DNA of 27,625 nt from a virus (lineage: Duplodnaviria; Heunggongvirae; Uroviricota; Caudoviricetes): the IMG/VR virus record IMGVR_UViG_2623620506_000008, positions 1-27,625 of that record; one strand, 5' to 3'. The position numbers were made by a program, and so were the translations under genes. Positions 7,580-27,625 of the stretch are shown one piece after another (positions within the stretch are counted from its first letter, which is position 1; the number at the start of each line of letters is the position of its first letter). Below the pieces are notes generated by a model. It did not search any database. It was given only the letters and a program-made list of their open reading frames with translations, and was not told where the DNA came from.

Positions 7580-7840
7580 TTATTGATGTGATGCTCGCTC
7601 AGTTTCTACATTCCTGATACCGACCTTATCAATATTGCACTGGCCCAGCGCCGATAGCAGACTGACATTCAGATCCAGACTGGCCCCGTAGGTCAGCGGT
7701 TCGGGAATGGCAGGCTGTGGTGTTTCAGCTGTCAGGTTCGCCGGCAGCGGCACCACCGGCACCTGCACGTAAACTGTCCGCGTATTCCCGCAACCGGTCA
7801 GCAGCTGCAGGAGGCACAGGCCGACGAGCGCAATCATCAT
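7580..7840 (-). CDS. Rz1: o-spanin (Rz1-like outer-membrane lipoprotein)
   Basis: Signal peptide MMIALVGLCLLQLLTGC with LTGC lipobox, proline-rich mature part, starts inside Rz in another frame. The ORF track extends it to 7906; Met at 7840 is preferred. Confidence 0.6.
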   Translation of the reverse strand: MMIALVGLCLLQLLTGCGNTRTVYVQVPVVPLPANLTAETPQPAIPEPLTYGASLDLNVSLLSALGQCNIDKVGIRNVETERASHQ

Positions 7841-12347: not shown

Positions 12348-12429
12348 GGGATTCTCCGTGGCGCATCGTGGTCAGGTTACCGGTTGTTCAGGCCGGTATA
12401 AACATTATGCTATTCAGACACTAAAAAGG

Positions 12430-12723
12430 TCAATTACTGGCTGATAACTCTCTGACGATCTCCACCAGAGTTTCGCGTGATATGACGCGTTCGTCCGTCT
12501 GAAGGCGCTTATAGCCAATTTCTGCGCCAGCAACATTCACCAGCACACGATCTCCTGGCCGGAGTTTAAACGAACACGCGGTAGCGCCATCAGAACGCCT
12601 CACGATATCGAAATACTCACCTCCATCAGAACACACCTCAGCCACATCAACCCCCTTCTTTGCTATCAACAAATTTATCTCTGCCGGCGGGAAAAGCTCC
12701 CCTTCATGAAACCAAGATAACAA
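12430..12723 (-). CDS. Hypothetical protein with no in-frame ATG
   Basis: ORF has no ATG; candidate starts are TTG at 12723 or GTG at 12648 (AAGGGGG RBS 5 nt upstream). Lies 78 bp downstream of the LexA box on the minus strand. Confidence 0.3.
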   Translation of the reverse strand: MLSWFHEGELFPPAEINLLIAKKGVDVAEVCSDGGEYFDIVRRSDGATACSFKLRPGDRVLVNVAGAEIGYKRLQTDERVISRETLVEIVRELSASN

Positions 12724-12800
12724 ATGGCTCTAATTTCCTAATAGGTTGGCCGACAAAGAATTCAAAAATTTTACTGCAGCTCTTAAACCATATCTCAAAA

Positions 12801-12820
12801 TACTGTATAAATAAACAGTG
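12801..12820. promoter_or_regulatory. LexA (SOS) box
   Basis: TACTGTATAAATAAACAGTG matches the E. coli LexA consensus TACTGTATATATATACAGTA at 17 of 20 positions with intact CTGT-N8-ACAG; overlaps a plus-strand TTAAAC-18 bp-TATAAA promoter-like pair. Confidence 0.6.
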
Positions 12821-13140
12821 TTTATCCGTTCGGCTTAAGTATGCACGTGAAAGGCATCTTTGCGCAAGGTCATTTATCTAATTGATTTGGATAATTTTTA
12901 TCGCTACTTACGTGTAAAAAATGATCGTTATTTTTAACACTCAGCGCAGAAAAGTATGCTGGTATAGATATCTTATTCCAATACTCTAGCTTACCACTCA
13001 GGGAGTAGGTCCCTACGCCAAGGGTATATAGAAGCACGGACGCATTCTGTCAGGTTGGTAATTTGTTACTGCAGAGTGTATGTTTCATAATCGTTTTAAT
13101 AGATTAATATCATTTCATCGATCCGTTAAGGCGATCAAGT

Positions 13141-14184
13141 ATGCACGGCTGGCCTTCATACGACCAATGCTTAGAAAAGCATTCTGAAGAAACCATAAGT
13201 GACTTGCACTTTGTTACCACACCACTTCGGAAATTTGAGCTGACCAGTGGCTGCGCAAACGGGGTAGCACATTGCCTATTTAATTCTATAGAAGTAAAGT
13301 ACCCAACATTATTCAGCTATTTGTTAAGGGAATTTATGAAAAGAGGAATGATAATCACGAGTAAAGTTGAGATAGATCAGGAAAATAACTCCGTTAAATT
13401 TAGACCAGAATTTAGCCAAAAGGCTCTGCGATATGGAGTGCTTTATCTTGATGAAATTTGTGTCGCGCAGACCTCTCTGTTTCAAATTGGATTGCCGGTT
13501 GATTGGCAACAACTAAAGAAGGAGAAAATAGTTAATGAGATCATTGGTAAGCCATCGCTCAGCGGAACGGTCGATTTTGCAAAAGCAGCTTTAGATGCAT
13601 ATTCCCAGTCGTTTTCTGAGTTAAACAAACGCCGAAATGAAACTTGGTGTCTCAATAAAGAATTCAAATTCCTCAATGAGCGCATTCCATTTATTGATTG
13701 TCATGGGGAAACTCTAACATTTTTGAATGCGCTTCCTGTGCCTACCGAAGACTTTCCTATAGGTGATCTTTATGAATTCCGCATAAAAAGAGATGATGAG
13801 CGCAAAGAGTTGATGAATTCAATTGATCGACTTAGGCTCAACGTTCTGAAAAGTGAAGATAAACACAATGCACTTAAAGTAGGCTTACTTGATGTTGAGA
13901 GTAATCTCATAACAATGAATCGCCTAATCAAAGAAACGAAGAGAGGTTTCTACCTTACTGATTTTTCATTGGATTACTCATCTAAAGATATGCTCGAAGT
14001 TTTCAAAGGAACATATGAAGCAACCACCACCTCAGGATTCGACAAACTTTCAGCATTAATCTTAGGTATGGGGGCATCACTAGCTTCAGGATTCAATTTT
14101 AAGGGGGGATACAGATATAAGCAGGCAAAACCAAACTCCCCTTATTTTTACGCAGCAGAGATAGTACATAAGTTTGATGTTTAA
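13141..14184 (+). CDS. Orphan low-GC protein, function unknown (moron)
   Basis: 347-aa ORF on the opposite strand to the surrounding early operon; GC about 32-43% against 55-60% flanks; alternative start ATG at 13336 with AAGGGA RBS; strong hairpin just after the stop. Confidence 0.6.
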   Translation: MHGWPSYDQCLEKHSEETISDLHFVTTPLRKFELTSGCANGVAHCLFNSIEVKYPTLFSYLLREFMKRGMIITSKVEIDQENNSVKFRPEFSQKALRYGVLYLDEICVAQTSLFQIGLPVDWQQLKKEKIVNEIIGKPSLSGTVDFAKAALDAYSQSFSELNKRRNETWCLNKEFKFLNERIPFIDCHGETLTFLNALPVPTEDFPIGDLYEFRIKRDDERKELMNSIDRLRLNVLKSEDKHNALKVGLLDVESNLITMNRLIKETKRGFYLTDFSLDYSSKDMLEVFKGTYEATTTSGFDKLSALILGMGASLASGFNFKGGYRYKQAKPNSPYFYAAEIVHKFDV

Positions 14185-14195
14185 TTCTTCAAAGT

Positions 14196-14228
14196 GAGGA
14201 TTCAAATTTTAAGCGCATTTGAATCCTC
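14196..14228 (+). terminator. Perfect 12-bp stem-loop after the orphan gene (terminator or insulator candidate)
   Basis: GAGGATTCAAAT-TTTAAGCGC-ATTTGAATCCTC, 12 nt after the stop; weak U-tract. Confidence 0.4.
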
Positions 14229-14458
14229 GTCTTACTAAGTATATATCGTTTATGCCTAGAGTTTAATTACTGGAGTAAGATTTTCACTGACTTAAAATAT
14301 TGAACATGAGACGTTTAGGTATTTTCGGAGTTTGCGAGCCGACTAAGTAAACACAGCGTCCTTGACGCCCTACACTGACAACCTAACCTAGTCAGCATCT
14401 TTTTACGCTGATTCACTAATTATGTATGCCTGCGCGTTTAAATGCTCATTGGTGAATG

Positions 14459-14953
14459 TCATGGGTTAGTCCTCGCTAAAACTCTGATTCCCTCAGCAAT
14501 GTCTACCAACGTTTCTGAATATTCTCGCTGCGCGTCATTTCCAAATTCAAACGAGCCAGTGTCGTTATCAACACGACCATGCTCGTTATCGAAAGACTCG
14601 CGCTGCTTATCAACCCAGTTCGCAGCAGCAGACACACCTTCACTAAAAGCTGATTCTGTAGGCATGAAAGACAGATCGGCGAAGAACTCACCAAAGCCAA
14701 AGCAGACTGAATATGCCAGGCGGCCATGCGGTTTGTAGCCAGGGTTAGTGATATCCGTTGTTGAGTACGTGGCGGTGATTTCCTCAACTACCGCCTCTGG
14801 CCGCGATGGGTTATCAGACCATGGGATGCAAATCAGGTCGAAGTCTCGCGCCATCGTTCCATGAATAGCCATGGCGTAACCGTGCTTACGAGCTATCTCT
14901 GCCAGTGCCGGGTAAAGCGCGCAATATACTGGTGCGAAGTTAGCTGGTTTCAT
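14459..14953 (-). CDS. Hypothetical early protein
   Basis: Probable start is the ATG at 14953 next to the upstream stop; the track ORF extends to 15034; no confident family. Confidence 0.45.
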   Translation of the reverse strand: MKPANFAPVYCALYPALAEIARKHGYAMAIHGTMARDFDLICIPWSDNPSRPEAVVEEITATYSTTDITNPGYKPHGRLAYSVCFGFGEFFADLSFMPTESAFSEGVSAAANWVDKQRESFDNEHGRVDNDTGSFEFGNDAQREYSETLVDIAEGIRVLARTNP

Positions 14954-15323: not shown

Positions 15324-15826
15324 TGGGCTGCCTCCTGACTAAGCTGCTTGAGATACGACTCAGCCAGTTCCTGCGCCTTGCCGTAGACCTGCACCTGCCG
15401 GTCAAAGTATCCACCCGCCTGGCATTTGGCGTGGATAGCTCCCATCTCTGCGGCGAACTGCGCAACACCTTGAGCGCGAACCTCAGCTAGGAATTCTTCT
15501 GTGGCCGGTGTTTTTGTTGCGCCGCGCAGGACGTTGTAAGCTGCCATCATCCCTCGCTCCGGTACTACTTCATCACCGTAAAACACATCCAGGGCAGCCA
15601 TCATCGTTTGCAGGGTGGGTTTAAACTGTTTTAGCTCCGCATTTTCTACAGTAAGAGCATCCCGCTGCTTCGTCATCTCACGCAGTGCCGCGGTCGTGCA
15701 GTCCAGCCGTTCGGCCAGGCGAGACACCATCTTCGCAATATCGATGATCGCCGTGTCGCTGCTCAGCGCCTTCGCAAACTCATGGCCGGCAGCTACCAGC
15801 TCTTTGTTATTCAGTGAATCGTTCAT
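15320..15826 (-). CDS. Hypothetical early protein, coiled-coil
   Basis: Start ATG at 15826 overlaps the upstream stop (ATGA); the track ORF extends to 15883. Confidence 0.45.
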   Translation of the reverse strand: MNDSLNNKELVAAGHEFAKALSSDTAIIDIAKMVSRLAERLDCTTAALREMTKQRDALTVENAELKQFKPTLQTMMAALDVFYGDEVVPERGMMAAYNVLRGATKTPATEEFLAEVRAQGVAQFAAEMGAIHAKCQAGGYFDRQVQVYGKAQELAESYLKQLSQEAAQ

Positions 15827-16191
15827 ACCCGTGCGCTCCCGAAAATTTTGTGGATCTGATAGCCCTGCCAGTTCTGGCGGCAAACTTCTGCGATTTTGGG
15901 TGTGTGGCTTACCACTGGTTCTGGCCTGGTGCGGGCTTTCACCGCAGCTTTGGCAATACCAGGTTGCTTGTGCCTAACCGGTTTGATCCGTTTTTCACCA
16001 CCAGCCTGCAGTTCGTAAACCGGGTGGTAGGGTTTCCCGACGTTCTTCACCGCTTCCACCAGAACCAGATGCTCGAGCAGCCTGTGGGCCTTTTTGCAGC
16101 CACAGCCCAGCAGCTGGCGGACTTCACGAGGAGTGATGACCCCGCGGTGCTGGAGAGCATGGATGATTGTCCAGAGATTGTTGCTGGCCAT
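15823..16191 (-). CDS. Hypothetical winged-helix-like protein
   Basis: ATG at 16191 with GGGAGGG/GAGG RBS just after the P stop; basic C-terminus. Confidence 0.4.
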   Translation of the reverse strand: MASNNLWTIIHALQHRGVITPREVRQLLGCGCKKAHRLLEHLVLVEAVKNVGKPYHPVYELQAGGEKRIKPVRHKQPGIAKAAVKARTRPEPVVSHTPKIAEVCRQNWQGYQIHKIFGSARV

Positions 16192-16193
16192 CC

Positions 16194-16883
16194 TCACGCC
16201 CTCCCCTCGGATTTCATCTGTTCGTACTTAGCCTTGAGCATCTCTGCTGGTGTGGGGCCGCTGGCTTTAGCCGGCGCGGCGATGGCGCGGCGGATTGGCG
16301 GTACGGGCTTACCTGCGGCGACGCGCTCTTCCCATCCAGCCAGGACCTTGCCGGCGGCCTGGCGCATCTCGTTTTCGGTCATCTGCCGATCGGTACTCTG
16401 GCGTCGCAGCTCGGTGCAGATGTGGTAAAGCACCGGCGTTGGCCAGGGGTATTGCTCACTGGTCGGGAAACGGAACACCAGGCGGCGCCATTTCCAGTAC
16501 TCAGTCATCACGTCATCAACGGTGATCCCCAGCAGGCAGCGCTCCTCCTTGCACCAGGCGACGAACTGGCCCGGAGACGGCAGGAACGGCTTTTCCTGGC
16601 GGCGAGCGACACGCATGCCGGCGGCGACCTGGGCCATGGTGATGATCCCGTTCTCCTGAAACGCCATCAGCCACTGGCGGCGCAGCTCGTTGAAATCGCT
16701 CTGCTCACGGAAAACGGCCATTGCCGCCGGGAACGCGGCACGCAGCGCGCTGAACAGGTCGTTGAAAATCTCCGCCGTCTGCTCGACATCCGGGCGCTCT
16801 GCCGGAGCCTCAGGCATGCCATGGGCGATACGGCGGAAATTCTCGCGGTCACAGTTCGCCAGCTGCTCAGATAGTCTTTCCAT
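16194..16883 (-). CDS. P: Replication protein P-like (DnaB helicase loader)
   Basis: Clear similarity to recalled lambda P (RRIAHGMPE, IRRQW-AF-ENGI-TM-QV-AGMRVARRQ-PFLPSPGQFVAWC). Confidence 0.85.
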   Translation of the reverse strand: MERLSEQLANCDRENFRRIAHGMPEAPAERPDVEQTAEIFNDLFSALRAAFPAAMAVFREQSDFNELRRQWLMAFQENGIITMAQVAAGMRVARRQEKPFLPSPGQFVAWCKEERCLLGITVDDVMTEYWKWRRLVFRFPTSEQYPWPTPVLYHICTELRRQSTDRQMTENEMRQAAGKVLAGWEERVAAGKPVPPIRRAIAAPAKASGPTPAEMLKAKYEQMKSEGRA

Positions 16884-17910
16884 CGAACACCTCGTTGATC
16901 CAGTCTGTGTTGTTGAAGTCGATGCCCTGGGCAGCTGGGCGGGGAGCGGACGGGTTGCTCAGGCGCTTGGTGCTGAGCTTGTCCCATTGCTTACGCAGGC
17001 TGGACGGGCTCAGGATATTGGTCTTCCAGAACTCATCCTTGCTGGCCCATTTGAGAAGGTCGCAAATTTCGTAATGCGTGCGGTTATCCTGCTGGCGCAT
17101 CAGCCGGATGGTATTGGCCCACTCAACCCATTTCGGCTCGCTCAGAGTGGCGTTTACCGTCAGGAGTTGGGTGTATATCCAGCGAGCGGCTTTGAGGTCG
17201 TCAGCCGTTCCCCAGGATTTGCCGGAGGGGGTATAGATTCCATCTGCAGCTTCAGGGTGACGAGAAAGAAATTTTTCAATCGCGTCGTTTCGGGATTCGG
17301 CAGAATTCCGAGACGAAGAGATCTTATTATTTATATTGTTGTTATTACCTTGTTGTTCATGATGCGCGGCTAATTGCGCGGCCTTATGCGCGGGTAAATG
17401 CGCGGCATCTCCCTCACAAGCCCCGCCGTTACTGGGTTCTTCATGCGCGGCATTATGCTCGCCGTAATGCTCGCCGTAATGCGCGGGTAAATTGTCTATT
17501 TTTTGAGCGTAAAGGGCATAATTTGTGATGGTAATCACAGTGCCTTTTCGCTTCTCACCAGCGGTAGAAATCATCCCCTCTTTAACGAAAAGCGCCAGCA
17601 TCCGTTCCACTGCATGGCGACTTGTAGGCTCTCCAGCCCGGTCACATAATTTCAGGCCGAGATCGGCTGAGGTGGTCACCAGTTGTCCGGTTTGCAGCGG
17701 CCACTGACGGCCTTTAAAGTTCGCCGTGTAAGGCTGACGGGCTGCGCCCAAAAGAAGGTTCTCCCACAGCGTGCGCAGGTAAACATCTTTCGCCCAGGGC
17801 TTCTTCAATACACTCCGGTACAACGGGATGAATCCAGTCTTCTGGTTGTCCATCCGGTTGCTCCTGACGGCACTGCGTGCCGCAAAATCGGCGTAAGCGA
17901 CATTCGACAT
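16867..17910 (-). CDS. O: Replication initiator, O-like
   Basis: Immediately upstream of P; N-terminal DNA-binding-like domain, low-complexity middle encoded by iterons, C-terminal domain; preferred start ATG at 17910 with AAGGGG RBS (track start 17967 is TTG). Confidence 0.7.
   Translation of the reverse strand: MSNVAYADFAARSAVRSNRMDNQKTGFIPLYRSVLKKPWAKDVYLRTLWENLLLGAARQPYTANFKGRQWPLQTGQLVTTSADLGLKLCDRAGEPTSRHAVERMLALFVKEGMISTAGEKRKGTVITITNYALYAQKIDNLPAHYGEHYGEHNAAHEEPSNGGACEGDAAHLPAHKAAQLAAHHEQQGNNNNINNKISSSRNSAESRNDAIEKFLSRHPEAADGIYTPSGKSWGTADDLKAARWIYTQLLTVNATLSEPKWVEWANTIRLMRQQDNRTHYEICDLLKWASKDEFWKTNILSPSSLRKQWDKLSTKRLSNPSAPRPAAQGIDFNNTDWINEVFDGKTI
17311..17490. repeat. Origin-like iteron array with adjacent AT-rich tract inside the O-like gene
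   Basis: Two arrays of four 12-bp units (consensus ATGCGCGG plus 4 nt) at 17362-17409 and 17443-17490; AT-rich tract 17311-17357. Confidence 0.6.
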
Positions 17911-18037
17911 GGCTATGCCCCTTTCGCCTGGTGTTTTGTACATGTATTTGTCATAATGACCTCGCAATTACGTCCCGTTTTTGCACCCGAAAGCCGTTGG
18001 TGTTCACGCACCGCGGCTTTCACCATTTCTGAGCCCG

Positions 18038-18595
18038 TCATAGCGCACCACCCAGCATCGTTGTAACCATCGCCATAATGGGCGCCACAGAATCAGGTCC
18101 GTCCAGGTAGAGCTTGGCTACGATGCTCTCGCTGATTTCCTTAAGGCGCTCGTGTCTGGGGGCTTTGAGAACGACAGCCTGAATGGCTTCTGCATCCTCT
18201 TTCAACGACCTGGCTACACGGACCGCGAAGCAATCGTTCTTAACCACGCGATCCCGGTACGCCAGCGGCAGAACCGAAATTATTACCGGCGCCATCTGCT
18301 CGACGTTTGCCCGGTAGGCCGGTGATTTCTCGTGGTTGTCCAGCCAGCGAAAAAGCTTCACGTTCCACACGTCGGGGCTTCCGCTTGTGTCGATGCCATC
18401 GAGCCCGGATTCCTCAACTGCCATCTTAATGGCCAGCGCGACAGCCACGCGGCCCTCTGCCGCCGCCCAGGCGCGAACAGCAGAACAGAGGGCGCGGTGA
18501 TCGACCGGCTGACCTTCGGCTTCGCCATGTTGATACTGGAATTTCAGGCGCTCTGACGGCGCTCTGTTATTCTGTTGAAAAGAAAGTGTTTGCAT
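18038..18595 (-). CDS. YdaT/CII-like early regulator (tentative)
   Basis: 185-aa ORF directly downstream of the Cro-like gene, ATG with AGGAG RBS; assigned by position. Confidence 0.4.
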   Translation of the reverse strand: MQTLSFQQNNRAPSERLKFQYQHGEAEGQPVDHRALCSAVRAWAAAEGRVAVALAIKMAVEESGLDGIDTSGSPDVWNVKLFRWLDNHEKSPAYRANVEQMAPVIISVLPLAYRDRVVKNDCFAVRVARSLKEDAEAIQAVVLKAPRHERLKEISESIVAKLYLDGPDSVAPIMAMVTTMLGGAL

Positions 18596-20068: not shown

Positions 20069-23000
20069 ATGGAATTTTTCTATGTGGTCAAAGCCACTCA
20101 GAAATCCGGTAAGAAAGATGCAGTGGTCTGGTTCACTGCCAAAACTCAATCTCGCGCCGCGCTGATGATGGACGTTGCGCTGGAAGACGCAGAAATTGAA
20201 AGTGGCCGCGGTAAAGACTACGCCAAGCCTGTACGCACCGATTTCCCAGTGTACGACGACCTCCCGGAAGAAGGTACCGTGGATTTCACCTGGTGCGAAC
20301 GCTATGAGCTGGCCGACGACCAGCGCACCTGGAACGTGATCCCCGGTGCCGCGGATCAGGGTGAAACCACCCTCGCCCCAGTGACCACCAGTGATGAAGA
20401 ACTGCCTGCCGCGCCGGTAACCTCTACTCATACCGCAGGCACCGGCAAAACGTCCCTGCTTGAAAATCGCACCCCGGCGGTTCGCTTCGCCGTCCATCTA
20501 TTGGGTGATAAATACCTTTCGGCGATCAGCCAGGAGCAGCACATCGTTGCCAACGAACTGGCGACCGATGAGGGGAATGCTTACTTCCAGAACCTGATGC
20601 AGGCCAAAAATGACGTTGGTGATATTGGCGATCTGAGCCTGCATACCGAGTGGAAACTGGTGCAGGCCGTTAAAGACGTTTTTCCTCAGGACAAAGTGCA
20701 CGAATCCGCGTCGCTGGCCGCCTTCATGTCGGGCTGGATTAACGCCGATGATCGCAACCAACTGGTTGATGACTGGAAGAGTGGAAAGCTCCCGGCCAAG
20801 AATGAGCCTGAACATTGGTATGAAGACGACCTGCAGATCTGCAAAGGCGATGATGAGTTTACTCGTTATCCGGTCTGCAAATTGCCATTCCGCCAACAGC
20901 TTCTCGCCCAACTGACGGTGGACGAACTGCGCCATCATGTCACCCGCGATGAACATACGGAACTGCATGCGCTGGAGAGTGATACCGACAACAGCTACGT
21001 CCAGACTCTTCTGCTTGCTGCTGAAAGCTGCCCAGAGTTGAAGGAATTCGATACCAAGGCCCTGTGGAGCTATACCAACGCGGTCCGAAAGGTATTCAGC
21101 CAGGAAAAACGTCACGAGTTGGCTCTGGTACTTCGCTTCACCAGAATCTGGGTGACTACTGAGGCCAGTGACCACGACATCCTGACCAGTGAATGGGCAG
21201 CCGGCCATCGCATTGATGATGTAGGTATTCAAAAAGACCAGAAATCCGAAGGGCCACAACCTTCAGAACCCTATAAGCGCGCAGTGCCGCAGAACATGGC
21301 GAACCTGAGCATCGAGATTGCGATCGCCATGCTATATCCAGACGCGGTACCCGGGAAAATCAACCGTGCGCAGCTGATGGCTGCCAAAGAACTGGCTGAC
21401 AAAAAAGACGAGACTCACTCCAGGGCGCTCAAGGTGCTCGGCAAAACCTCTGATATTACTGACTACAACGCTGACAGTATTTTTGGCATTGCCCGTGCAC
21501 TCCCCTGGAGTGGAGATATAACCACGGTCGAACTGCGTAAGCAGGTTCGTGAATGGTTCACCGCGAACGGTATCTATGAAAATGGCGAGCGTTCAAAGGG
21601 TTATCCAGAGTGGGATGAAGATCCTCGCGCAAGCCGCCAGGTGATGGTGGAAGAGCCAGTAGCTACCAGCCAGCCGCAGGTCGCGAACCTCGGCGGCGGC
21701 ATGTTCTCCATCGATGGCCTGCTGGGTGGAAATACTAACCCGGTCATCAATATCCCCTCACATGAAGTAGAAAAACCGGAAACCGTAGCGGAGACCACCA
21801 GCGATGTGCAGATGGAAGCGACTCAGCCAGAGAAAGACAAAACTGTTGATGCGGTACCAACAGGCGAAAGCGTTGATGCAGCTGATCCGCAAACAGATAC
21901 CCTGAACCCGGCTGAGGTGCTGGCCGCCGCGGCGCCGGAGCTGGCGAACGCCACCACGCAGGAATCGACCACCGAAGCGCCAGACGCGAAAGCGAGCGCG
22001 CCGGAAGAGCAATCCTCACAACCGGTCCCGGAATACCCGGCGTACTTTGAACCTGGCCGTTATGAAGGCCTGCCGAACGACGTTTATCACGCAGCAAACG
22101 GGATCAGCTCCACTCAGGTGAAAGATGCCCGGGTCAGCCTGATGTACTTCAACGCCCGCCACGTCGCCAAAACCATCCCGCGGGCCCCTTCCAAGGTGCT
22201 GGACATGGGTAATCTTGTTCACGCCCTGGCGCTTCAGCCCGAAAACCTCGAGGCAGAGTTCAGCGTAGAGCCGGAGATCCCGGAAGGTGCTTTCACCACC
22301 ACCGCCACCCTGCGCGAGTTCATCGACTCGCACAACGCCAGCCTGCCGGCGCTGCTGAGTGCTGACGATATCAAAGCGCTGCTTGAAGAGCACAACGCCA
22401 CCCTGCCCGCGCAGCTGACGCTGGGCGCCTGCATGGAGGAAACGGCGCAGAGTTACATGTCGCTGCCGGAAGAGTTCCAGCGTATTGAAGTGATTCAGAG
22501 AAAGACCGCGGCAGCCATGAAAGCCTGCATCAAAGAGTATAACGCCACCCTGCCCGTGCCGGTTAAAACCAGCGGCAGCCGCGATGCGCTGCTTGAACAG
22601 CTGGCAATCATCAACCCTGACCTGGTGGCGCAGGAAGCCCAGAAACCGGCACCACTGAAAGTGTCCGGCAGCAAAGCGGAAATGATCCAGGCGGTTAAGT
22701 CGGTCAAGCCTGACGCTGTATTCGCCGACGAGCTGCTGGACGCCTGGCGCGAAAATCCGGGCGACAAGATTCTGGTGACGCGCCAGCAGCTGGCGACCGC
22801 CCAGGCCATCCAGGCTGCCCTGCTGGCACACCCGACCGCCGGCATGCTGCTGACGCACCCGAGCCGCGCCGTTGAGGTGAGCTATTTCGGCTTTGACGAC
22901 GAAACCGGGCTGGAAGTGCGCGTGCGCCCAGACCTGGAACTGGACCTCAACAACCTGCGTATCGGTGCCGACCTGAAAACCATCAGCATGTGGAACGTTA

Positions 23001-23326
23001 AGCAGGAGAGCCTGCGCTCCCGGCTGCACCGGGAAATCATCGACCGTGATTATCACCTGAGTGCGGCCATGTATTGCGAGACCGCGGCGCTGGACCAGTT
23101 CTTCTGGATCTTCGTCAACAAAGACGAAAACTACCACTGGATCGCCATTATTGAGGCATCCGCAGAACTGCTGGAGCTGGGCATGCTCGAGTACCGCAAA
23201 ACCATGCGCGCTATCGCTACCGGATTCGACACCGGCAACTGGCCGGCGCCTATCACCGCTGATTACACCGACGAACTGAACGACTTCGACCTGCGCCGCC
23301 TTGAAGCGCTGCGTACTCAGGCATAA
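20069..23326 (+). CDS. recE: RecE-like exonuclease VIII, PD-(D/E)xK nuclease C-terminal domain with long N-terminal region
   Basis: 1085 aa; C-terminal region has nuclease-like D...E-L-D...D-L-K motifs (RPDLELDLNNLRIGADLKTIS); sits directly upstream of an annealase gene as in Rac recE-recT; N-terminus recalls RecE (FPVYDDLPEEGTVDFTWCERY). Confidence 0.65.
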   Translation: MEFFYVVKATQKSGKKDAVVWFTAKTQSRAALMMDVALEDAEIESGRGKDYAKPVRTDFPVYDDLPEEGTVDFTWCERYELADDQRTWNVIPGAADQGETTLAPVTTSDEELPAAPVTSTHTAGTGKTSLLENRTPAVRFAVHLLGDKYLSAISQEQHIVANELATDEGNAYFQNLMQAKNDVGDIGDLSLHTEWKLVQAVKDVFPQDKVHESASLAAFMSGWINADDRNQLVDDWKSGKLPAKNEPEHWYEDDLQICKGDDEFTRYPVCKLPFRQQLLAQLTVDELRHHVTRDEHTELHALESDTDNSYVQTLLLAAESCPELKEFDTKALWSYTNAVRKVFSQEKRHELALVLRFTRIWVTTEASDHDILTSEWAAGHRIDDVGIQKDQKSEGPQPSEPYKRAVPQNMANLSIEIAIAMLYPDAVPGKINRAQLMAAKELADKKDETHSRALKVLGKTSDITDYNADSIFGIARALPWSGDITTVELRKQVREWFTANGIYENGERSKGYPEWDEDPRASRQVMVEEPVATSQPQVANLGGGMFSIDGLLGGNTNPVINIPSHEVEKPETVAETTSDVQMEATQPEKDKTVDAVPTGESVDAADPQTDTLNPAEVLAAAAPELANATTQESTTEAPDAKASAPEEQSSQPVPEYPAYFEPGRYEGLPNDVYHAANGISSTQVKDARVSLMYFNARHVAKTIPRAPSKVLDMGNLVHALALQPENLEAEFSVEPEIPEGAFTTTATLREFIDSHNASLPALLSADDIKALLEEHNATLPAQLTLGACMEETAQSYMSLPEEFQRIEVIQRKTAAAMKACIKEYNATLPVPVKTSGSRDALLEQLAIINPDLVAQEAQKPAPLKVSGSKAEMIQAVKSVKPDAVFADELLDAWRENPGDKILVTRQQLATAQAIQAALLAHPTAGMLLTHPSRAVEVSYFGFDDETGLEVRVRPDLELDLNNLRIGADLKTISMWNVKQESLRSRLHREIIDRDYHLSAAMYCETAALDQFFWIFVNKDENYHWIAIIEASAELLELGMLEYRKTMRAIATGFDTGNWPAPITADYTDELNDFDLRRLEALRTQA

Positions 23327-23331
23327 GGGGA

Positions 23332-24450
23332 ATGACCATGGAAAACATGAACATCGTAACTGCAGAGCAACAGGCTCCGAACACAATTTCTGCAACCAAC
23401 TCCATTTTCAATGTCCAGGCGCTGACCCAACTCCAGGCGGTTGCTGGCTTAATGGCACAGGCGGCCGTGACAGTTCCCGAACACCTACGGGGCAACCCGG
23501 CTGACTGCATGGCGATTATCATGCAGGCCATGCAGTGGGGCATGAATCCTTACGCCGTAGCGCAGAAAACGCACCTGGTAAACGGCGTGCTGGGTTACGA
23601 GGCGCAGCTGGTTAATGCGGTGATCTCCAGCTCAAATGCCATCGTAGGCCGCTTCCATTATGAATATGAAGGCGACTGGTCGAAGTGCGCCCGGATACGC
23701 GAGGAGGTTGTTAAAAAGCCTGCCAAGGGTGGCGGGACCTATGAGAAAAAAGAAATTGTCCGCGGCTGGACCAGTGATGATGAGCAGGGACTCTCGGTTC
23801 GTGTGGGCGCAGTTCTCCGCGGTGAAAGTGAAATTACATGGGGCGAGCCGGTTTATCTGTCCAGCGTAATTACGCGCAACTCCCCTCTCTGGGTATCGAA
23901 CCCAAAACAGCAGATCGCCTATCTGGCGCTCAAATACTGGGCGCGCCTCTACTGCCCTGCAGTGGTGCTGGGCGTGTATACCCCTGATGAAGTTGAGCAA
24001 AGAACCGAAAAAGAGATTAACCCGGCACCAGCGCGCGTAAGCCTGTCTGATATTTCCGGTGACAACGTAACAACCACTCACAGCGCGCAGGAGTCGGCAG
24101 CCAACATCGATGCTATGGCCGATGAATTCCGGGATCGCATTGAGGCAGCCCAGGACGTGGACAATGCAAAAGCGCTGCGTGCCGACATCGAAACCGCTAA
24201 GGCAACGCTTGGAACTGCCCTGTACACCGAACTGAAGAATAAGGCCGTGAAACGCTATTACCACGTGGACGCGCGTAACAATGTCGAGGCAGCAATCAAC
24301 TCCCTGCCCCAGCCTGGCGAGCCGGATGCCGCCGAACAGTTCGCAGAAGCCGAGCGCGTGCTGGCATCTTCAAAGCGTCACCTGGGCGACGAACTGCACG
24401 ATCAGTTCAGCATCACCCTGGCGGATATGAAACCGGAATACGTGGCCTAA
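23332..24450 (+). CDS. recT: Single-strand annealing protein, RecT/Redbeta family
   Basis: Follows the exonuclease; segments resemble recalled lambda Bet (PLWVSNPKQQIAYLALKYWARLY versus PWQSHPKRMLRHKAMIQCARLAF); probable start ATG at 23338. Confidence 0.6.
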   Translation: MTMENMNIVTAEQQAPNTISATNSIFNVQALTQLQAVAGLMAQAAVTVPEHLRGNPADCMAIIMQAMQWGMNPYAVAQKTHLVNGVLGYEAQLVNAVISSSNAIVGRFHYEYEGDWSKCARIREEVVKKPAKGGGTYEKKEIVRGWTSDDEQGLSVRVGAVLRGESEITWGEPVYLSSVITRNSPLWVSNPKQQIAYLALKYWARLYCPAVVLGVYTPDEVEQRTEKEINPAPARVSLSDISGDNVTTTHSAQESAANIDAMADEFRDRIEAAQDVDNAKALRADIETAKATLGTALYTELKNKAVKRYYHVDARNNVEAAINSLPQPGEPDAAEQFAEAERVLASSKRHLGDELHDQFSITLADMKPEYVA

Positions 24451-24484: not shown

Positions 24485-25318
24485 ATGTTAAGAGAAAAAC
24501 CTGTTAAGCACCCGGCGATCCGTTACCACGGCGGTAAATTCCGCTTGGCATCCTGGATTATCCCTCAGATGCCTGAGCACGTCTGCTACGTGGAACCGTT
24601 CGGCGGCGCAGCTGGCGTATTGCTGCAAAAGCCTCGCAGCTATGCGGAAGTTTATAACGACTTGGATGGTGAGGTGGTGAACCTGTTCCGGGTGCTGCGT
24701 GACGCAGAGATGAACCAGCGCCTGCAACATGCGTGCATGCTCACGCCTTATTCTCGTGATGAATTTTGCGCAGCGCATGAAGTCACCGAAGAACCGATTG
24801 AGCGAGCAAGACGCATGGTTGTCCGCGCCAGCATGGGCTTTGGTTCAGCAGCAGGAATTGGCGGTAATTCCGGCTTCCGTAGCGACAGCAAAAGGAAATA
24901 TGCGACAGCTGCGCATCTGTGGGAGCGTTATCCGGAAAATCTGGCAGCAGTATGTCAGCGCCTTCAGGGGGTCATTATCGAAAACAAAGATGCCCTGTCA
25001 GTAATGCGAGCCCATGACGCTGAAACAACCCTGCACTACATCGACCCGCCTTATGTACCCGAAACCCGCGTGCATGGTAACCGTTATTACAGCCACGAAA
25101 TGACTTTAGAGGGGCATGAGCAATTGCTCGCAGTAGCCAGAACGATGACCGGAATGGTGATGATCAGCGGCTACGACTCGGATGTGTACAACGACATGCT
25201 GGTCGGATGGAAGAAAACGAAAAAATCTTCACGCATTAGCGCCGGTAGGGGTACGAAGGTCCGCACTGAATGTATGTGGCTTAACCCAGCATCACAACAG
25301 GCGGAGCGTGCAGCATGA
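24485..25318 (+). CDS. DNA N6-adenine methyltransferase, Dam-like (orphan)
   Basis: YHGGK near the N-terminus, EPFGGAAGV, catalytic DPPY (HYIDPPYVPE); no restriction endonuclease gene adjacent. Confidence 0.85.
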   Translation: MLREKPVKHPAIRYHGGKFRLASWIIPQMPEHVCYVEPFGGAAGVLLQKPRSYAEVYNDLDGEVVNLFRVLRDAEMNQRLQHACMLTPYSRDEFCAAHEVTEEPIERARRMVVRASMGFGSAAGIGGNSGFRSDSKRKYATAAHLWERYPENLAAVCQRLQGVIIENKDALSVMRAHDAETTLHYIDPPYVPETRVHGNRYYSHEMTLEGHEQLLAVARTMTGMVMISGYDSDVYNDMLVGWKKTKKSSRISAGRGTKVRTECMWLNPASQQAERAA

Positions 25319-25567: not shown

Positions 25568-25891
25568 ATGACAAATTTCCGACAGCTTTATAATGAGTTG
25601 TCGGAAGCCGGAGGTAATATGGCCAAGCTTCTTAACCTGCAGGAATGGGCTAAAGAAACCTATTCAACACCGCCCTCTCTTTCTACCCTTCGCCGCTGGG
25701 CCAGGGAGGGGCGCATCTTTCCTGCACCAGCGCTTCATGGCAAAGAATATAAGGTTCAACCGGATGCTATCTATGTGGATCCGAGCAAAAAGAACCTGCG
25801 ACCGAAACCTAAACACATGACGCTGCCCGCCGGCGGCACCCTACTGGAGAGACTGACTCATGGCGAAAAGGCCAGTACGTTACGACGCTAA
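25568..25891 (+). CDS. xis: Excisionase, lambda Xis-like
   Basis: LNLQEWAKETYSTPPSLSTLRRWAREGRIFPAPALHGKEYKV resembles recalled lambda Xis; preferred start ATG at 25619 with GGAGG RBS; overlaps the int start. Confidence 0.75.
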   Translation: MTNFRQLYNELSEAGGNMAKLLNLQEWAKETYSTPPSLSTLRRWAREGRIFPAPALHGKEYKVQPDAIYVDPSKKNLRPKPKHMTLPAGGTLLERLTHGEKASTLRR

Positions 25892-26945
25892 TCTGCCCCG
25901 TAACCTGACCTATCGTAAAAGAGACAGGCTTTATAGCTGGCGCAACCCGACAACCGGCCAGGAAATATCTCTTGGCCGGATCGACAGGAAGGATGCCATC
26001 TCTCAGGCCATAGAGGCCAACAACTACATCGAACAGAATTACCTGCCCTCAGCTCTGCTTGACCGCATAAAGGAGACCCCTACCTTTACGGTTAAGAGCT
26101 GGCTTGAACGGTACGAGGTGATCCTTGAGCGAAGAGAGTTGAAGCCAAACACCATGAAGGTCAGGCGAAATCAGATCGCAACCATTAAGGATGAATTCGG
26201 CAAGATGCCGTTATCCTCAGTTAGCACGAAGGACATATCAAACTTTCTTGAGTCCTATATTTTATGCGACAAGAAAAGCATGGCCGCCGGCCTACGGTCC
26301 GTGCTGCTGGACATTTTCAGGGAGGCTATTGTCGAAGGGCATATAGAAAGGAACCCAGCGGATCCTACGCGAACGCCGACACCAAAGGTAAAACGGGAGC
26401 GTTTGCTGCTCGAGCATTTTATAGTTATCCGCGCGGCAGCTGCTTCCCACTCGGAGTGGTTGCCGAACGCCTGCAATCTTGCTCTGGTTACAGGACAGCG
26501 CCGCGAGGACATTTCGCTTTTTCGGTTCAGTGACGTTAAGGATGGTAGGCTATTTGTTACGCAGGAGAAGACGGGACACAAACTGGCGCTGCCGCTTGAT
26601 TTGAAATTGGAGGCCGTGGATCTTGTGCTTGAAGAGGTAATCGAACGCTGCAGAGTAAATAATCCCTCAGACTTTATGCTTTTCTCCCCAGTCAGGCGTG
26701 GGGGCAGAAAGCCGGGCCCCTTAACTCCAGATGGTTTAACCCAGGCTTTTGCGGATGTGCGAGATGCAACGGCGTTAAAATTTGGCCCGAACCCACCGCC
26801 CTACCATGAGATCAGAAGCCTGGCCAGCAGACTATATGAAAAGGAACGTGGAGAGGAATTCACGCAACGTTTGCTCGGCCACAAAAATTTAACAATGACA
26901 AAAAAATACCTGGACGCACGCGGTGCAGAGTATGTTATGGTTTAG
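25860..26945 (+). CDS. int: Tyrosine integrase, lambda Int-like
   Basis: Extensive similarity to recalled lambda Int (LALVTGQRREDI, HEIRSLASRLYEKE, LLGHK, Tyr near the C-terminus). Confidence 0.9.
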   Translation: MAKRPVRYDANLPRNLTYRKRDRLYSWRNPTTGQEISLGRIDRKDAISQAIEANNYIEQNYLPSALLDRIKETPTFTVKSWLERYEVILERRELKPNTMKVRRNQIATIKDEFGKMPLSSVSTKDISNFLESYILCDKKSMAAGLRSVLLDIFREAIVEGHIERNPADPTRTPTPKVKRERLLLEHFIVIRAAAASHSEWLPNACNLALVTGQRREDISLFRFSDVKDGRLFVTQEKTGHKLALPLDLKLEAVDLVLEEVIERCRVNNPSDFMLFSPVRRGGRKPGPLTPDGLTQAFADVRDATALKFGPNPPPYHEIRSLASRLYEKERGEEFTQRLLGHKNLTMTKKYLDARGAEYVMV

Positions 26946-27213
26946 ACAGGATATGGATTATTCGAGTAAGTTTCGGGGGATTTCGTGAGAACACCGAAAA
27001 AACCCTTAAGAAACAAATAGATAAAAAGAGACCGAATACGATTCCTGTATTCGGTCCAGGGAAATGGCTCTTGGGAGAGAGCCGTGCGCTAAAAGTTGGC
27101 ATTAATGCAGGCTTAGTTGCCTTGCCCTTTAAGAATAGATGACGACGCCAGGTTTTCCAGTTTGCGTGCAAAATGGTCAATAAAAAGCGCGGTGGTCATC
27201 AGCTTAAATGTTA

Positions 27214-27283: not shown

Positions 27284-27625
27284 TTAACAGAGTTTTTCAG
27301 CTCGTTCTATAAACGGTGCCAGACTCATTTTTTCGCCGGGATTGTTAGGATCATCAATCTGAATCACCGAAATGGGTTGGGCTTTAGTCTTCCCACTGGC
27401 AACTTCCTTTTGTGCGATATCGTTTAAAGGATACTGCACGAGGGTACTTGGGTTGATGACATACAAAGCATTACCCGGTCGGCAAGTCAGCATCACCTCT
27501 TCGCGATTAAACGCCCATTTGTCTTTACCCACTTCAAAACGGCTGACGGTAATCACCTGCGGTGCAGCCAGCGCCGCTGCAGAACTGGTGAGTAACAGAA
27601 ACGCCAGAATACTTTTTTTCATCAT
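27284..27625 (-). CDS. yebY: Host periplasmic protein, YebY-like (DUF2511)
   Basis: 113-aa product with signal peptide [22 protein letters not shown]; closely matches the recalled E. coli YebY; ORF starts at the window edge. Confidence 0.6.

Follow-up and report, generated by a model that had tools for sequence, protein, structure and literature searches.

In the 27,625-nucleotide stretch of DNA analysed here (the window, i.e. positions 1 to 27,625 of the Caudoviricetes record IMGVR_UViG_2623620506_000008 of IMG/VR), the segment 17286-17490 is very probably the replication origin of a lambda-like (Rac-like) prophage, located in the linker-coding part of the gene for an O-like replication initiator (16867-17910, minus strand; 347 amino acids (aa) from the ATG at 17910). 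The observations behind this reading are the anatomy of the segment, the selection acting on its repeat units at the DNA level, the co-inheritance and co-variation of these units with the N-terminal domain (N-domain) of the initiator, the low stability of an A+T-rich tract and a right half homologous to the origin of phage lambda (ori-lambda) and to that of phage phi80. By analogy with the mechanism of the lambda origin (PMC5043065, PMC7466680), we infer the binding of O, the number of O molecules per unit, the unwinding and the initiation at this site. Along the O gene, the order is N-domain, array A, spacer, array B, A+T-rich tract and C-terminal domain (C-domain); the arrays, which encode aa 141-183, sit between the N-terminal DNA-binding domain and the C-domain, on the 5' side of the A+T-rich tract.

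The repeat arrays and the selection on their units

An earlier note on this DNA had described eight 12-bp units forming two arrays of four, and both arrays were recovered on the minus strand, namely array B at 17362-17409, which adjoins the A+T-rich tract, and array A at 17443-17490, which lies farther from it; Tandem Repeats Finder, the type of check then proposed, gave a period of 12 for each. On the plus strand, array B is made up of ATGCGCGGCTAA (17362-17373), TTGCGCGGCCTT (17374-17385), ATGCGCGGGTAA (17386-17397) and ATGCGCGGCATC (17398-17409), which on the coding strand read GATGCCGCGCAT / TTACCCGCGCAT / AAGGCCGCGCAA / TTAGCCGCGCAT for the peptide DAAH-LPAH-KAAQ-LAAH, and array A of ATGCGCGGCATT (17443-17454), ATGCTCGCCGTA twice (17455-17466 and 17467-17478) and ATGCGCGGGTAA (17479-17490), which read TTACCCGCGCAT / TACGGCGAGCAT / TACGGCGAGCAT / AATGCCGCGCAT for LPAH-YGEH-YGEH-NAAH. 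Arranged head-to-tail, the units start on the plus strand with an exact ATGCGCGG in five cases out of eight, with TTGCGCGG (one mismatch) in one and with ATGCTCGC (two mismatches) in the remaining two. The degenerate core [AT]TGC[GT]CG[GC] has 8 matches inside 130 bp, to be compared with a largest cluster of 3 in 300 Markov-1 simulations of the window. On the coding strand, the unit reads NNN-NCC-GCG-CAT, that is x-(P/A/G)-(A/E)-H, four times, twice over, and its translation bears out the view that the iterons encode an Ala/His-rich linker. Among 77 unique homologous linkers, it resolves into a conserved 8-bp core (CCGMGCAT on the coding strand, ATGCKCGG on the plus strand) and a variable 4-bp spacer, an arrangement resembling binding sites set in a row.

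The arrays had also been called perfectly phased, which holds within each of them (exactly 12 bp) but not between them (81 bp); as this offset is a multiple of 3 and not of 12, the arrays are in codon phase and not in mutual 12-bp phase. They are diverged copies (51 nt, 71% identity) and constitute an 81-bp duplication, on either side of an inter-array spacer of 33 bp (17410-17442, minus strand) encoding E-E-P-S-N-G-G-A-C-E-G. In array B, identity is higher at lag 24 than at lag 12, in keeping with the idea of the 12-bp unit as half of a 24-bp dimer site; lineages with three units per array weaken this idea. No Rfam match was found across the repeat region, and a terminator-like match at 17468-17489 was put down to the repeats themselves.

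Megablast of the O gene gave no match in phage records and, in E. coli genomes, only the overlap with the P gene, so that homologues were compared through protein searches; 19 genomic loci, three phage records and 80 viral contigs yielded 79 unique linkers, of which 77 have the standard layout of four units, 33 bp and four units. One alternative to an origin is that the repeats are a feature of the protein only, i.e. a low-complexity (x-P/A-A-H)n linker generated by replication slippage and devoid of DNA function. The units are indeed in frame and encode a repetitive Ala/His-rich segment, and their number changes by one unit in a few homologues (3+3 in a Yersinia phage, 4+3 at locus L079), which makes the 12-bp unit the element that is gained and lost. 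Nucleotides, however, are conserved where amino acids vary. Across the 77 linkers, a His at the fourth codon of the unit is written CAT in all 481 cases and never CAC, whereas the same genes elsewhere have 258 CAT for 255 CAC; in the first 20 sequences, the counts are 113:0 in the units vs. 67:50 elsewhere (Fisher p = 3e-18). His can be replaced by Q, L, N or R, in each case via single-base changes preserving most of the core. Position 6 of the unit, the third base of its second codon, is C in 611 of the 616 units, for a residue that varies between P, A, G, S and T.

More generally, synonymous sites are far more conserved in the arrays than in the folded domains. The third-position entropy is 0.3-0.7 in the arrays for an amino-acid entropy of 1.0-1.5, against about 1.0 and about 0.3, respectively, in the N-domain; pairwise, the arrays combine an amino-acid identity of 38-66% with a third-base identity of 84-88%, and where the residue is identical, so is the codon in 18/19, 12/12 and 20/21 cases, compared with 67/103, 50/91 and 54/97 in the N-domain. 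Besides, the four inter-core bases vary freely among homologues instead of being homogenised, which argues against a simple homogenisation of repeats by slippage, and a sister lineage repeats the signature with the rare codons GTA and ACA, as detailed below. With such evidence at hand, a linker resulting from slippage is an extremely improbable explanation, and the unit core is conserved as DNA rather than as protein, which is the reverse of ordinary coding sequence. The same pattern of conservation recurs in four or five lineages with different units.

Concerted change of the units and the N-domain among relatives

The N-domain of the O-like initiator (17518-17856, minus strand) matches the Pfam family Phage_rep_O over aa 19-131 (E = 2.9e-14) and is the presumed iteron-binding domain. 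Its relatives number 180 among 1.84 billion cluster representatives. In 28 of 33 full-length representatives of the family, the strongest periodicity of the linker is 4 or 8 residues, and about 27 of the 33, as judged by eye, have two period-4 arrays around a conserved spacer, a few having one or three arrays; the peptides repeated across the family include xPAH, DEPSDKPS, EVTN, GTLN, NDQx and PVTP, among others. The number of arrays itself varies, since L110 (IMGVR_UViG_2872672955_000002) and P0164 carry three of them via a further duplication of the 81-bp type, and three representatives (P0126, P0156 and P0172) carry a single array without spacer. The earlier note had taken an absence of the repeats from functional homologues as speaking against an origin; this was not seen, as every homologue examined keeps the arrays, including those of isolated Klebsiella, Yersinia and E. 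coli phages (CUS-3 and Stx2a phages).

The units change in step with the N-domain. At about 75% N-domain identity, a clade comprising Klebsiella phage ST16-OXA48phi5.2, Yersinia phage vB_YenM_29.18, E. coli phage CUS-3 and a number of Stx2a phages uses GCA-CAT in almost every unit, where the clade of the window uses GCG-CAT, i.e. a concerted synonymous change. At about 50% identity, the 12-bp period, the two arrays, the 33-bp spacer and the A+T-rich tract are retained, and the units differ, being of the CCGATGAA, GTCGAAGG or GGTAACAAA type; in Salmonella phage S.Inf 5-2 they read xCC-GAT-xAA-CCA and in Enterobacter phage BHUENT3 GTCGAAGG/GACGAGCC. In the GGTAACAAA lineage, whose units read xAG-GTA-ACA-AAx, Val is encoded by GTA in 91/101 cases in the units vs. 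19/121 in the N-domain (p = 6e-31), and Thr by ACA in 64/74 vs. 21/103 (p = 4e-19).

The inter-array spacer follows a different course. Its peptide, K/E-P/A-S-x-G-A-x-L, is kept family-wide, down to about 35% identity, while the flanking units change completely (comparison of window 17410-17442 with L104, L105, L110-L163 and P0122-P0174). An initial impression of a conserved DNA site gave way in view of synonymous drift between AGT and AGC, AAC and AAT, and GGC and GGT, which suggests conservation of the spacer at the protein level instead; K-P-S-x-G-A-x-L could be a separate protein-level motif within a presumably disordered linker.

The right half of the element and its prophage context

As the earlier note had reported, an A+T-rich tract of 45 bp adjoins the repeats. 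It extends from about 17316 to 17361, directly downstream of the repeats in the reading direction of O and beside array B, has an A+T content of 78-80% and encodes HEQQG-NNNNINNK (aa 184-198 of the O-like protein), with third-codon positions nearly invariant across homologues (entropy 0.12). This presumed DNA-unwinding element ranks second for low stability among the 40-mers of the 27.6-kb window (-42 kcal/mol for a mean of -57.4, z = 3.4), and a comparable duplex instability is encountered only in a low-GC island at 12.4-14.3 kb. At its border with the palindrome described next lies the hexamer AGATCT (17319-17324, with GATC at 17320-17323), which is kept in most homologues as well as in phi80 (locus L109, about 7774-7779), in two reading frames (K-I-S-S and K-R-S-S). 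That this site serves in Dam methylation or SeqA binding, and so in controlling the origin, is a guess. As a separate observation, the prophage carries a gene for a Dam-type methyltransferase (24485-25318), with a possible link to the GATC at the origin.

The imperfect palindrome (17286-17315) has 13-bp arms around a 4-nt centre, reading CGTCTCGGAATTC tgcc GAATCCCGAAACG on the coding strand. Aligned with lambda and 25 homologues, it proves homologous to the lambda inverted repeat located just right of the A+T-rich tract, TCAGAGAATTCTGGCGAATCCTCTGA, and it also aligns with phi80. Across 27 variants, four stem pairs show compensatory changes on both sides (29 cells); the covariation is 0.18 vs. 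0.08 in shuffles, none of 500 reaching the observed value, and pairing is maintained in 83.5% of the cells but in at most 52% when the partner is slid.

The origin region is modular. The N-domain and the arrays are always inherited together, whatever the C-domain or the helicase partner: they are combined with a lambda-type C-domain and P in the window as well as in the phages of Klebsiella and Yersinia, and with a P22-type C-domain and a DnaB-like helicase in CUS-3, the Stx2a phages and S.Inf 5-2. The point where modules are switched lies in or beside the A+T-rich tract, and in lambda's own origin this tract holds the recombinant (hybrid) joints that the lambda record marks at positions 39157 and 39165. 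The right half of the element is accordingly a homologue of ori-lambda and the left half a different specificity module. Some further cases of the origin as a mosaic joint (loci L011-L014, about 40 viral contigs, L021 and L105) can be mentioned in their own right. In the clade of L011-L014 and about 40 viral contigs, the last unit is directly followed by a different A+T-rich tract (GTAATATTAAATACTAACGTATTTAAT) and a different C-domain; CUS-3, the Stx2a phages and S.Inf 5-2 have a right half of the P22 type (CCCCC..GGGGG palindrome), with a DnaB-like helicase taking the place of P.

Such joints, found in or beside the tract in the L011-L014 clade, in CUS-3 and in lambda, bring in a second alternative, namely that the units are functional DNA but not an origin, serving instead in O autoregulation or replication silencing, as sites for other phage or host proteins, or as "boundary" sequences for module exchange in lambdoid phages; in support of silencing, cloned lambda iterons can silence replication in trans (PMC3349717). 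Yet the sites co-vary and travel with the N-domain of O only, and not with the immunity region or the helicase loader, and the full anatomy of an origin is present in the lambda order, from the iterons to the A+T-rich tract and the palindrome homologous to those of lambda and phi80. Moreover, neither a DnaA box (TTATNCACA, at most one mismatch) nor a consensus for the integration host factor (IHF) occurs in 16800-18100, and Tandem Repeats Finder gave no second repeat cluster in the replication module. A function other than that of an origin is thus considered very unlikely.

Regarding the genes around, the P-like helicase loader (16194-16883, minus strand; PF06992, E = 4.5e-50; phrog_109) overlaps the end of O, and the order assigned with PHROGs, i.e. 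the repressor on the plus strand, then cro-like, cII-like (YdaT), O, P and Ren-like genes on the minus strand, is that of lambda. A pR-like promoter match was found at 18882-18854 in the divergent intergenic region, promoter matches in the scan as a whole being no commoner than in shuffled sequence. Many database homologues of the O-like gene are annotated from Met20 (17853). In the same part of the gene (about 17820-17875, codons about 12-30), third-codon positions are unusually conserved (entropy 0.18-0.5 over R-S-N-R-M-E-N-Q-K-T-G-F-I-P-L-Y), which may point to a second start within the gene or, much as in the oop/pO region of lambda, to a DNA or RNA signal superposed on the coding sequence. 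The AlphaFold2 model of the O-like protein, computed from a shallow alignment, has a mean predicted local distance difference test (pLDDT) score of 52, with a helix-strand pattern at aa 38-137, a helical C-domain with pLDDT 70-79, and aa 135-208 without secondary structure at a pLDDT of about 30; the model is consistent with the repeat-encoded segment being a flexible, probably disordered, linker that would tolerate a peptide dictated by the DNA. On the plus strand, long open reading frames (ORFs; 204-235 aa) lie opposite P, O and the ren-like gene (16167-16874, 16690-17373 and 15814-16428); most likely they are not genes but a consequence of the GC-rich coding strand.

Farther away, a RecE-like gene (exonuclease VIII N-terminus and PDDEXK domain, 1085 aa) and a RecT-like gene form a pair at 20069-24450 like that of the Rac prophage; with the YdaS/YdaT-like genes at the cro and cII positions, they give the early region a Rac-like character. 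A lambda-type integrase gene (25860-26945) is followed by the locus of the RyeA/SraC and RyeB/SdsR small RNAs (27019-27163; Rfam 178 and 116 bits) and, beside it and just outside the integrase, by a yebY-like (DUF2511) gene (27284-27625). The succession of RecE/RecT-like genes, methyltransferase, integrase and then chromosomal genes identifies the window as a Rac-like or lambda-like prophage at its chromosomal junction. The low-GC island (about 12400-14600; 39-48% GC vs. 54% for the window), which contains most of the least stable 40-mers, looks like an insertion of acquired cargo (moron); a lone plus-strand ORF in it (13141-14184) matches DUF6236, and 2.1 copies of a 21-bp unit stand in tandem at 14547-14590.

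This integration beside chromosomal genes (integrase, RyeA/RyeB locus, yebY-like gene) is what a third alternative builds on, in which the segment is an origin by descent but is inactive here, the prophage being a decaying remnant. On the other side, the O and P frames are intact, the eight units, the A+T-rich tract and the palindrome all match the family consensus, and near-identical modules occur in viral contigs of about 50 kb and in isolated phages, so that an inactive origin is judged unlikely.

Several points do weigh against the assignment of 17286-17490 as a working origin. The prophage could be defective, and intact O and P frames do not prove that an origin fires. Dyad symmetry in the arrays is not above chance, the best being 7 of 9 positions, which 217 of 500 shuffles match, and the arrays contain no A- or T-runs of at least 4 nor other A-tract bending signals; with units lacking both dyads and A-tracts, the lambda mode of binding is not simply transferable. 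As the compared sequences are mutually related, the p-values given above overstate the number of independent events. Besides, no solved structure was found for any relative of the O-like protein, and no published description of these units was found either, in a search that turned up work on lambda and on Stx phages and covered the older literature only partly, so that an earlier description is possible.

Proposed functioning and comparison with known origins

Were the segment to function as proposed, transcription of the cro - cII-like - O - P operon would cross the origin, and the N-domain of O, of the winged-helix type, would bind the eight 12-bp units through their CCGMGCAT core and form a nucleoprotein complex. 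On supercoiled DNA, this complex would open the adjoining 45-bp A+T-rich tract, onto which the lambda-type C-domain of O would bring P bound to the host DnaB helicase. The same DNA would also encode a tolerant, probably disordered, linker peptide. As the unit is exactly four codons long, each lineage would have had to co-evolve the DNA site, the binding domain and the tolerated peptide repeat together, and the repeat types xPAH, DEPSDKPS, EVTN and GTLN would offer a natural series for studying the co-evolution of initiator and site under coding constraint.

Beyond this prophage, the assignment would narrow the origin to about 200 bp in many enterobacterial prophages and phages, a widespread group that takes in isolates from Klebsiella, Yersinia and E. 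coli as well as Stx2a-converting phages. The consensus site obtained for each lineage would help annotation, the design of lambda-dv-like replicons and the prediction of replication incompatibility or cross-silencing among co-resident prophages. Synonymous sites more conserved than amino acids, with a four-codon period, would further provide a signature for finding such origins without experiments.

Several characteristics of lambdoid origins are found together here, i.e. a place within O, repeats selected as DNA and specific to the N-domain, an A+T-rich tract, a palindrome and a P loader immediately downstream in the early operon. The earlier note saw in the element a mirror of the lambda origin, which stands for its place in an O-like gene, its A+T-rich tract and its homologous right half, but not for the repeats, which are not the 19-bp inverted repeats of lambda. 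As in ori-lambda, the origin is part of the initiator gene and separates the N-terminal DNA-binding from the C-terminal P-binding domain; repeats are followed by an A+T-rich tract of about 40-45 bp, at the same position as the 40-bp region of lambda, and then by an inverted repeat; and a P-like gene comes next, in an operon of the cro-cII-O-P-ren order. Sequence homology with ori-lambda is found at the A+T end, in the palindrome and in the C-domain (TTCGTC..GAATTCTG.CGAATCC). In contrast, lambda has four sites that are inverted repeats of about 18-19 bp, 20-24 bp apart, bound by O dimers and provided with A-tracts, whereas in the window a 33-bp spacer separates two arrays, each of four 12-bp direct repeats; the dyad of lambda pairs 8 of 9 positions and is matched by 4 of 500 shuffles, far fewer than match the best dyad of the window. 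The N-domains of lambda O and of the O-like protein share only their Pfam family, and tblastn with the N-domain of the window misses lambda O. It is conceivable, though somewhat doubtful, that this branch of the O family recognises its origin differently from lambda, with single N-domains or a head-to-tail chain of them on non-palindromic 12-bp direct repeats, at one per about 1.14 turns of the helix, coating one to three arrays of 36-48 bp instead of placing four dimers on palindromes.

The other lambdoid origins available for comparison show the same combination of likeness and difference. In phi80 (gene 15), the origin also lies within an O-like gene and the right half is nearly identical in type (AAAAGATCTTCGTCCGAGAATTCTGACGAATCCTCTGACG), GATC included, but the four annotated gp15 sites have a 21-bp period and clear dyads (TTCCCGAAAACGGGAA). 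In P22, the gene 18 origin (annotated rep_origin 32840-32984) likewise has repeats, an A+T-rich tract and a palindrome within the initiator gene, but its repeats are dyads, CGGTAAA..TTTACCG, about 21-24 bp apart, and the window has instead a lambda-type right half and a P loader. The inverted repeats of about 15-19 bp, spaced by about 20-24 bp, that characterise the iterons of lambda, phi80 and P22 are not found in the window, where the period is 12 bp.

Theta-plasmid iteron origins (P1, F, RK2, pSC101, R6K) are alike in having arrays of direct, non-palindromic initiator sites next to an unwinding element rich in A+T. Their iterons are about 17-22 bp long, and plasmid origins often include DnaA and IHF sites. 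The window has neither such sites nor the helix phasing (about 11 or 22 bp) of plasmid-type iteron origins, 12 bp amounting to about 1.14 turns; its initiator, in addition, belongs to the Phage_rep_O family and not to the Rep family, and its sites are inside the initiator's own coding sequence. Plasmid iterons bind initiator monomers and are usually phased with the helix (PMC5043065). Binding by monomers may be the better analogy for direct 12-bp units.

Taken together, the lambda paradigm of an initiator gene holding its own origin, with the A+T-rich tract as the joint between modules, would be extended to a branch with 12-bp direct repeats. This is not a new kind of system, as a phage biologist would expect an origin at this very place; the less familiar part, next to lambda, phi80 and P22, is the layout.

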